Shown piece after piece: positions 58,062-58,388 of a stretch of 64,000 nt of DNA. The translations under genes were made by a program, and so were the position numbers. Position 1 is the stretch's first letter. Every line of letters starts with the position of its first letter. The notes under the pieces were generated by a model that saw only the letters and a list, made by a program, of their open reading frames with translations, was not told where the DNA came from and made no database searches. The stretch lies in assembly GCF_056746865.1 (NCBI RefSeq), contig NZ_CM163382.1; one strand, written 5' to 3'.

Positions 58062-58388
58062 ATGAAAAGACGCCTTTTACTACTTTTTCTGTTATCTGTC
58101 CTGGCAGTGGGATGCTCGCAGCAAAAAGCTGATGAGCCCCGGCAATTAGTGACGGTGTATCCACGATATCCGGAATATGCTGCAGCAAATTATATCAAGG
58201 GGCTGGTTGAGGTTAAGTTCGATATTGGTGCTGATGGGACTGTGACACGGATCGTTTTTCTCCGCTCAGAGCCTCATAATTTGTTTCGTGATGAAGTGGT
58301 GAAGGCCATGGCGAAATGGCGATTTGAAAAGAATCGCCCCTGTCAGGGAGTGAAGAGACAATTTATCTTTACGCCGTCACGTCCTTGA
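58062..58388 (+). CDS. lipoprotein with TonB C-terminal-domain-like fold
   Basis: Lipobox LAVGC; mature part shows the TonB_C pattern (YPRYPEYAAANYIKGLVEVKFDIGADGTV...AMAKWRFE...FIFTP). Confidence 0.6.
   Translation: MKRRLLLLFLLSVLAVGCSQQKADEPRQLVTVYPRYPEYAAANYIKGLVEVKFDIGADGTVTRIVFLRSEPHNLFRDEVVKAMAKWRFEKNRPCQGVKRQFIFTPSRP

Follow-up and report, generated by a model that had tools for sequence, protein, structure and literature searches.

The question raised by this locus is what use a temperate phage may have for the C-terminal domain of TonB placed behind a lipoprotein signal peptide. A protein of that kind, 108 residues long, is encoded in the window studied here, that is, the whole stretch of 64,000 nucleotides taken from contig NZ_CM163382.1 (NCBI RefSeq assembly GCF_056746865.1). 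Its gene, hereafter the TonB_C lipoprotein gene, lies between the lysis cassette and the cohesive end site (cos) of a prophage, a lambdoid element that encodes DicB, Rem, HokD and Q (coordinates of all features are collected in Table 1). The identity of the folded domain, its predicted anchoring, its relatives and its regulation are considered in turn, and a tentative function as a decoy for TonB-dependent receptors is then weighed against other explanations.

Identity of the folded domain

A first-pass annotation, made from the DNA letters, had read in the protein a signature common to the C-terminal domains of TonB and TolA. Residues 33-99 match the Pfam family TonB_C (PF03544) with E=9.1e-13, the structure search being in agreement, and the TIGR01352 model tonB_Cterm is matched with 47.4 bits versus a cutoff of 27.1. 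Residues 24-103 align without a single gap with residues 151-230 of E. coli TonB (PDB 1u07; E=1.4e-14), with ~45% identity over these 80 residues as counted from the alignment. Both the YP motif and five aromatic positions of TonB are kept, Y163, P164, F180, F202, W213, Y215 and F230 corresponding to Y36, P37, F53, F75, W86, F88 and F103, while P34, Y36, G59, P71, F75 and W86 are invariant across a 28-sequence alignment.

The AlphaFold2 (AF2) model obtained from that 28-sequence alignment shows a predicted local distance difference test score (pLDDT) of 87.4 overall, above 95 through the domain, and places strands at residues 47-55, 61-70 and 94-103 and a helix at residues 76-83. Together with Foldseek, it supports the fold that characterizes the TonB C-terminal domain, namely two helices on a three-stranded sheet with an exposed β3 edge. 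Foldseek superpositions on the TonB domains 1u07, 2gsk_B and 2grx_C yield root-mean-square deviations of 0.9-1.5 Å and template modeling scores of 0.91-0.93, and the model differs by 0.9-1.0 Å from the TonB domain in its complexes with BtuB and FhuA. A TolA-like fold was rejected, TolA domains being matched by Foldseek at E>0.1 only. Thus, the TonB half of the earlier signature stands on profile, alignment and structural grounds, and its TolA half does not.

The protein is, nonetheless, far from being a whole TonB. Full-length TonB equivalogs of NCBIfam, including PRK10819, are matched with 45-69 bits versus cutoffs of 265-448, and the matches cover just the last ~75-85 profile positions (~150-240 of 239-252). 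Neither the transmembrane helix nor the proline-rich rod of TonB is present, a lipoprotein signal peptide standing in place of the transmembrane anchor; lacking helix and rod, the window protein cannot draw energy from ExbB-ExbD and is no energy transducer. The domain also stops just past strand β3, without a counterpart to TonB 232-239, and every family member likewise ends within a few residues of β3. In comparison with the C-terminal domain of E. coli TonB (~150-239; 1u07, 1xx3, 2gsk and 2grx), the window protein is homologous and shares fold, YP motif and aromatic core, but it is predicted to be lipid-anchored to the opposite, outer membrane, and it cannot draw on ExbBD.

Signal peptide and tether

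The protein begins with MKRRLLLLFLLSVLAVGC, followed by SQQ, in which a KRR n-region, a leucine-rich core and the lipobox A-V-G-C18 are recognized. The stretch MKRRLLLLFLLSVLAVG-C18-S fits the PROSITE-style lipobox pattern (residues 1-18), and the sequence features of a lipoprotein sorted to the outer membrane are all found. The lipobox Cys is invariant in a 14-sequence family alignment despite the diverged signal peptides. Residue +2 is Ser in the window protein, and Asp occupies this position in none of the family sequences read; since +2 is Ser and not Asp, sorting to the outer membrane is predicted by the Lol rule. Lipidation and an outer-membrane location are therefore the predicted fate of the protein. 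Mean pLDDT values of 52-56 at residues 1-20, rising to high values from about residue 26, suggest that the seven residues linking the Cys to the domain form a flexible tether. The first-pass description of a lipobox-bearing lipoprotein with a TonB-like C-terminal domain is in this way borne out by the lipobox pattern and by profile, sequence and predicted-structure comparisons.

Records, relatives and selection

The gene is not new, as it is already annotated in phage 21 and in RefSeq. Its product is 100% identical to CPT_21_73 of phage 21, recorded as "TonB C-terminal domain protein", and the identical protein also occurs in phages ev017, Perceval, PhiR47_2, PhiR57_1 and PhiR63_2. An 809-bp region containing it is found, at a coverage of at least 80%, in 1220 of 5426 complete E. 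coli genomes (~22%), the listed E. coli records naming the gene "TonB family protein"; under the same name, the coding sequence is RefSeq WP_000830178.1 in an E. coli genome that matches the 809-bp region with 100% identity. Because the gene was annotated already, even in a textbook laboratory phage, the discovery value lies in its function. New here are the breadth of the family across Enterobacterales, the conserved slot after the lysis genes, the purifying selection, and the Fur boxes of relatives.

As judged from sequence comparison, the window protein is a member of an Enterobacterales TonB_C family. A second E. coli clade (clade 2), ~70% identical and carried by Stx1a-converting phages and JLK-2012, keeps the 108-residue length and the lipobox (VMGC), its signal peptide being diverged. 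An exhaustive HMMER search added further TonB_C proteins of ~107-133 residues with 35-46% identity, most of them with a lipobox. These are found in ST64B-like prophages of Salmonella enterica (P0037), in Klebsiella phages (P0042), in Serratia viral contigs from IMG/VR (the L153 group), in Rahnella (P0089, a near-identical copy of which, L157, lies on a viral contig), on the Gibbsiella chromosome (P0041) and in Erwinia / Pantoea (P0117). Among the chromosomal relatives, the Gibbsiella copy adjoins ahpC, and another adjoins an acetyltransferase gene.

In all phage contexts examined, the gene closely follows the lysis cassette and precedes the terminase genes, in the same orientation. In the phage 21-type context the next landmark is cos with the Nu1/A terminase; in the clade-2 locus Rz1 lies upstream and an HNH gene downstream; in Salmonella ST64B-like phages the gene is found between a DUF2514 spanin and HNH/TerS/TerL; and in Klebsiella phages it follows holin, GH108 endolysin and spanin-like genes and precedes Terminase_2/6 or HNH/TerS. 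The slot is thus kept across phage 21-type, HK97/HNH-type and P22-type packaging contexts. Its content varies, as ST64B itself (L158 1521-1940) has sb54, annotated as 'transcriptional regulator', between the spanin and an sb55-like gene, a place taken in related Salmonella prophages (L099 3501-3833) by the TonB_C lipoprotein gene with its Fur box; the presence of sb54 there indicates a swappable cargo position.

The first-pass placement of the gene after Rz/Rz1 and before cos agrees with the family matches of both spanins and with the cosN core. Its equation of this position with the lambda bor slot fares less well: in phage 21 a minus-strand bor separates Rz from the TonB_C lipoprotein gene, and the window has no bor. 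Since phage 21 carries both, they are better described as neighbors in a cargo region than as alternatives. Lambda Bor is likewise a lipoprotein cargo of the Rz-to-cos interval, but it is unrelated in sequence and its gene has the opposite orientation. Of the traits that may mark a moron, the window copy shows a deviating GC content (0.47 versus 0.55 in flanking genes), and the slot is polymorphic (sb54; bor present or absent). Neither a consensus promoter nor a terminator was found for this copy by scan. The Rz-to-cos interval as a whole has a GC content of 0.47, versus 0.52-0.56 in the lysis genes on one side and the large-terminase/portal genes on the other.

A comparison of the two E. coli clades, in which dS is near saturation, gives a ratio of nonsynonymous to synonymous substitution rates (dN/dS) of 0.12, and closer pairs give 0.24-0.31; these low values point to a selected protein rather than to a decaying tonB fragment. 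Disrupted alleles (P0035, P0003 and P0002) also circulate. One of them, recorded as 'truncated TonB-like membrane protein encoded within prophage', has a frameshift and has lost the lipobox Cys, and another set, a cluster of 130 member sequences, has a C-terminal frameshift that replaces strand β3. The gene is, then, sometimes lost, which would fit a costly or conditionally useful function.

Transcription and Fur boxes

The first-pass annotation had supposed that the DNA upstream of the gene could hold a promoter of its own. A scan for consensus sigma-70 promoters, which did not cover extended -10 elements, found none on the plus strand upstream of the window gene, and no intrinsic terminator was detected by scan between Rz and the gene. 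With neither promoter nor terminator found, transcription is by default ascribed to read-through from the late promoter pR'. Within DNA that both E. coli clades have conserved, a candidate extended -10 element is seen, and in the window copy it is perhaps a weak promoter that adds to late read-through.

A different picture emerges upstream of the relatives, where Fur boxes were scored by their match either to TGATAATnATTATCA (out of 14) or to the 19-mer consensus (out of 19). Copies of the Salmonella type reach 14/14, those of L004, L009 and the Serratia type 13/14, and those of the Klebsiella type lower values (Table 1), while chromosomal relatives score 14-15/19. The sites lie ~29-38 nt from the start codon in the Salmonella type, L004, L009 and the Klebsiella type, and ~60 nt from it in the Serratia type, and promoter-like sites overlap them. 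Throughout 74 kb of related loci just seven positions reach 13/14, and five of the seven fall at this upstream spot. The Salmonella and Serratia copies and, less clearly, those of Klebsiella thus look like Fur-repressed morons, and these boxes would imply iron-regulated expression from inside the phage late region. The family appears to have been iron-regulated ancestrally, and its E. coli copies seem to have lost Fur control or to keep it in degenerate form.

In this regard, E. coli clade 2 presents a perfect palindrome of 17 bp, AGAATAAGACTTATTCT, that scores 13/19 and overlaps the candidate -10 element (L016 ~2443-2459; also L018 and other clade-2 loci), and of which the clade of the window and phage 21 keeps just the left arm. 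It may be an operator for some regulator or a degenerate Fur site. Fur-like sequences are also seen further downstream. One of them (12/14) precedes the window cosN by ~40 nt; in Salmonella-type loci, matches of 13/14 to 16/19 stand just before the small terminase gene (L099 4621-4635; L106 4712-4731). These pre-terminase sequences may be Fur, integration host factor or terminase sites, or chance matches.

A possible decoy for TonB boxes

The function that we favor, with reservations that slightly outweigh our confidence, is that of a decoy, tethered to the outer membrane, whose binding of TonB boxes would uncouple the receptors from TonB. The first-pass annotation had already put forward such a mimic as a hypothesis, and it is a reasonable one. 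The tether would hold the domain at the periplasmic face of the outer membrane, where TonB boxes emerge, and the β3 edge strand, permanently exposed, would pair with the strand formed by the TonB box in FhuA, FepA, Cir, BtuB and further TonB-dependent transporters, and perhaps also in group B colicins entering the cell, in competition with the real TonB. Through lysogenic conversion, the host would then become less sensitive to TonB-dependent phages, colicins and microcins, and would pay for it with slower siderophore and B12 uptake. In the relatives that look Fur-controlled, expression would coincide with the greatest abundance of TonB-dependent receptors. What we infer here is the binding of TonB boxes and the resulting phenotype, along with lipidation and the outer-membrane location; architecture, fold, conservation, slot and the Fur boxes of relatives are the observations reported above.

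Periplasmic TonB fragments 33-239, 103-239 and 122-239 inhibit TonB-dependent transport in a dominant-negative manner (bioRxiv 10.1101/2020.01.05.895219). Like the window protein, they present the C-terminal domain in the periplasm without the membrane anchor of TonB, and they block ferrichrome transport as well as the activity of the TonB system; by analogy, they are the direct functional precedent for a decoy mechanism. They are, nonetheless, laboratory constructs with a cleavable signal peptide, soluble and overexpressed, whereas the phage protein is natural, predicted to be tethered to the outer membrane, and diverged in its contact surface. A second likeness is with Llp (T5) and Cor (phi80, HK022, N15 and mEp167), also small phage lipoproteins of the inner leaflet of the outer membrane, which block FhuA from the periplasmic face and with it phage entry and transport (bioRxiv 10.64898/2026.03.26.714494). 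These are FhuA-specific and guard the receptor of the phage that carries them, whereas the target of the window protein would be the TonB box that TonB-dependent receptors share. The PHROG scan gave no sign of homology to Llp or Cor, its matches being limited to phrog_1267, to a TonB-like family and to weak signal-peptide ones, and the fold is that of the TonB C-terminal domain. Cor-like self-exclusion was rejected as well, since the receptor of phage 21 is LamB (PMC11336670); exclusion would therefore target other phages or toxins and not the carrier itself.

When the mature protein was joined through a Gly-Ser linker to the N-terminus of FhuA, AF2 predicted a paired strand covering exactly DTITVT, the FhuA TonB box, at a pLDDT of ~70, in a model that had no control and in which the partner strand could not be inspected. 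The model is weak evidence, and TonB-receptor complexes were part of the training of AF2. Other considerations also weigh against a decoy. (i) In TonB, Q160, R158 and R166 are tied to contact with the TonB box or receptor (structures 2GRX and 2GSK), and in the window protein they are replaced by Y33, T31 and Y39, position 39 being Tyr in most of the lipoprotein family; as these residues are not conserved, the binding partner could differ. (ii) Receptors outnumber TonB, so that a decoy would need high expression. (iii) The window copy has no Fur box, its best upstream match (11/19) lying ~185-220 nt from the start. (iv) A blocker of iron uptake that is induced by iron starvation is costly to its host. 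(v) Full-text search of the literature found no functional study, and no experiment exists; papers mentioning a TonB-like gene among the matches merely list it, and one on the svsR small RNA (sRNA) of a lambdoid prophage does not mention TonB. (vi) No match was obtained with the PADLOC defense models.

A wider version of the decoy proposal is held more tentatively still, our doubts being here clearly the larger part: that temperate phages of Enterobacterales carry an outer-membrane-tethered inhibitor of the coupling of TonB to the TonB box, switched on through Fur under iron shortage in many lineages, which would give broad protection versus TonB-dependent phages, group B colicins and siderophore-microcins at the expense of iron uptake. 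Were the protein truly a TonB decoy, a natural protein inhibitor of TonB coupling would be known for the first time, and with it a broad lysogenic-conversion trait for phage, colicin and microcin sensitivity that acts on a whole receptor class, unlike Llp and Cor. It could also affect siderophore-antibiotic conjugates that enter via TonB-dependent receptors, and would represent an iron-uptake trade-off imposed by prophages on gut pathogens, the carriers ranging from a classic laboratory phage to prophages of Salmonella, Klebsiella and Serratia. The Fur boxes of the relatives provide a second and independent prediction, that of iron-regulated expression within the prophage late region.

Other explanations

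Among the alternatives, an envelope or virulence moron of the Bor or Lom kind survives best, while still being unlikely. The TonB fold would in this case hold peptidoglycan or another envelope component, with serum resistance, vesiculation or envelope stability as the outcome. The gene does adjoin bor in phage 21 and is often present in clinical genomes of E. coli, Salmonella and Klebsiella, but the Fur boxes of relatives point to iron and TonB physiology, and the similarity is specifically to TonB and not to generic peptidoglycan-binding folds.

Practically level with it, and in our opinion likewise unlikely, is a dominant-negative action on another target, by which the protein would pair with the C-terminal domain of host TonB or with the periplasmic domain of ExbD and trap the energizer at the outer membrane. 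TonB is far scarcer than its receptors, and its titration would need less protein; the changes at Q160, R158 and R166 fit an altered partner of the lipoprotein as well. The authors of the ExbD work themselves consider that periplasmic TonB inhibition could act via the TonB-ExbD interaction and not via receptors (10.1101/2020.01.05.895219). On the contrary, a tether of seven residues confines the domain to the outer membrane, a long way from ExbD, and the β3 edge and fold are exactly those used in TonB-box pairing.

A positive accessory for iron acquisition, Fur-regulated and binding a particular ligand or receptor as the TonB homologs FusB and HasB do, appears quite improbable. Fur-repressed genes are usually iron-acquisition genes, and structures of the C-terminal domain of FusB, which binds ferredoxin, are among the structural matches of the window protein (7zc8 and 9hi3). 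Nevertheless, a protein without transmembrane helix or rod, and scoring far below the TonB equivalog cutoffs given above, is unable to transmit energy, no conserved partner gene adjoins it in the contexts opened, and the E. coli copies have no Fur box.

A lysis accessory or spanin-like protein, made late and helping to disrupt the outer membrane, is very improbable. This notion has its source in the match to phrog_1267 (E=5e-43), a family labeled 'Rz-like spanin', and it is favored by the position of the gene downstream of Rz, in the same orientation and with no terminator found between them. However, the prophage already possesses a complete Rz/Rz1 pair, the protein is a globular TonB domain and not a short proline-rich o-spanin, and relatives have what look like Fur-controlled promoters of their own. 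The o-spanin identity given by the PHROG label was for these reasons rejected. With both Rz and Rz1 present, the label is most likely carried over from the position and the lipobox; it looks like a positional mis-annotation, likely spread by automated phage annotation.

Finally, a functionless captured fragment of host tonB, to which older labels in EDL933-derived and Perceval annotations ('partial tonB-like', 'TonB fragment') and frameshifted copies such as P0035 and P0003 would point, is the least probable explanation of all and is largely refuted by the conservation data, that is, by dN/dS values of 0.12-0.3, by a new lipoprotein signal peptide kept in relatives of 35-70% identity from several genera, and by the conserved length and genomic slot.

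The interval between the lysis genes and cos

Upstream of Rz/Rz1 lies the endolysin gene, and the large terminase gene follows, as the small one does, downstream of cos. The first-pass annotation had described the DNA separating Rz from the gene as ~300 bp of non-coding sequence. Its length is confirmed at 310 bp, the first 130-150 bp of which recur in many lambdoid phages, cassette-specific DNA beginning near 57900; its non-coding nature holds less well, as an ORF of 45 codons, annotated in phage 21, lies within it. This upstream ORF had no match in the PHROG scan, and the alignment, read by eye, shows a stop after 21 codons in the sister clade. Being truncated there, it is probably not a conserved protein, and its candidacy as a leader peptide or gene was rejected on both counts.

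Table 1. Positions of the features of the TonB_C lipoprotein locus in the window, and of Fur boxes upstream of related genes (named loci).
Feature	Position	Strand	Basis or remark
TonB_C lipoprotein (108 residues), coding sequence	58062..58388 (stop codon included)	+	intact ORF
Predicted type II (lipoprotein) signal peptide, residues 1-18	58062..58115	+	sequence and PROSITE-style lipobox pattern match
Predicted seven-residue tether SQQKADE, lipidated Cys to folded domain	58116..58136	+	AF2 confidence
TonB C-terminal domain, residues 26-103 (E. coli TonB 153-230)	58137..58370	+	profile, alignment, AF2, Foldseek
Shine-Dalgarno AGGA, 6 nt before ATG	58052..58055	+	phage 21 ribosome-binding site annotated at the same place
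Candidate extended -10 element TGtCAGAAT (clade 2: TGtTAGAAT)	58034..58042	+	by eye; block conserved between E. coli clades
Left arm of the clade-2 palindrome, AGAATAAGACCCGT	58039-58052		kept in the window/phage 21 clade
Upstream ORF, 45 codons	57907..58044	+	annotated hypothetical in phage 21
Gap from Rz to ATG, 310 bp	57752..58061	+	sequence comparison
Rz i-spanin, end of lysis cassette	57278-57751	+	phrog_13, E=1.6e-73
Rz1 o-spanin, embedded in Rz	57504-57689	+	phrog_3198, E=3.7e-26
cosN core GGGCGGCGACCT, end of cargo interval	59152..59163	+	sequence match; 764 bp past the stop codon
Small terminase	59275-59886		PHROG scan
Fur-box-like sequence TGATAATTATTCTCG	59101-59115		12/14
59-residue protein	58511-58690	-	phrog_4843
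83-residue ORF	58752-59003	-	unannotated
STnc100 sRNA	51650-51854	+	Rfam, 133.5 bits, E=8e-30
301-codon ORF	50619-51524
Fur box, Salmonella type, TGATAATTATTATCA / TGATAATCATTATCA	L099 3472-3486; L106 3472-3486		14/14
Fur box, L004 (unknown host), TGAGAATTATTATCA	L004 289-303		13/14
Fur box, L009 (unknown host), TGATAACGATTATCA	L009 804-818		13/14
Fur box, Serratia type, TGAAAATCATTATCA	L153 3432-3446		13/14 (16/19)
Fur box, Klebsiella type, GATAATGTTGATTATCATT			14/19 in best copies, 12-13/19 in others; 10-12/14

Two minus-strand ORFs were also observed between the TonB_C lipoprotein gene and cos. The 59-residue product of the first is hypothetical in RefSeq, and clade 2 has a DUF3950 gene at the corresponding place. 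The second shows a signal-peptide-like N-terminus, MKIRNILAISLATSSFSCLA, and had no match in PHROG or PADLOC. In the Rfam scan of positions 50000-64000 (E<=0.1), no family fell in the 310-bp gap or in the gene, and the sole match was the STnc100 sRNA, which is encoded upstream of the lysis genes, just beyond a 301-codon ORF that may be the Q antiterminator gene.

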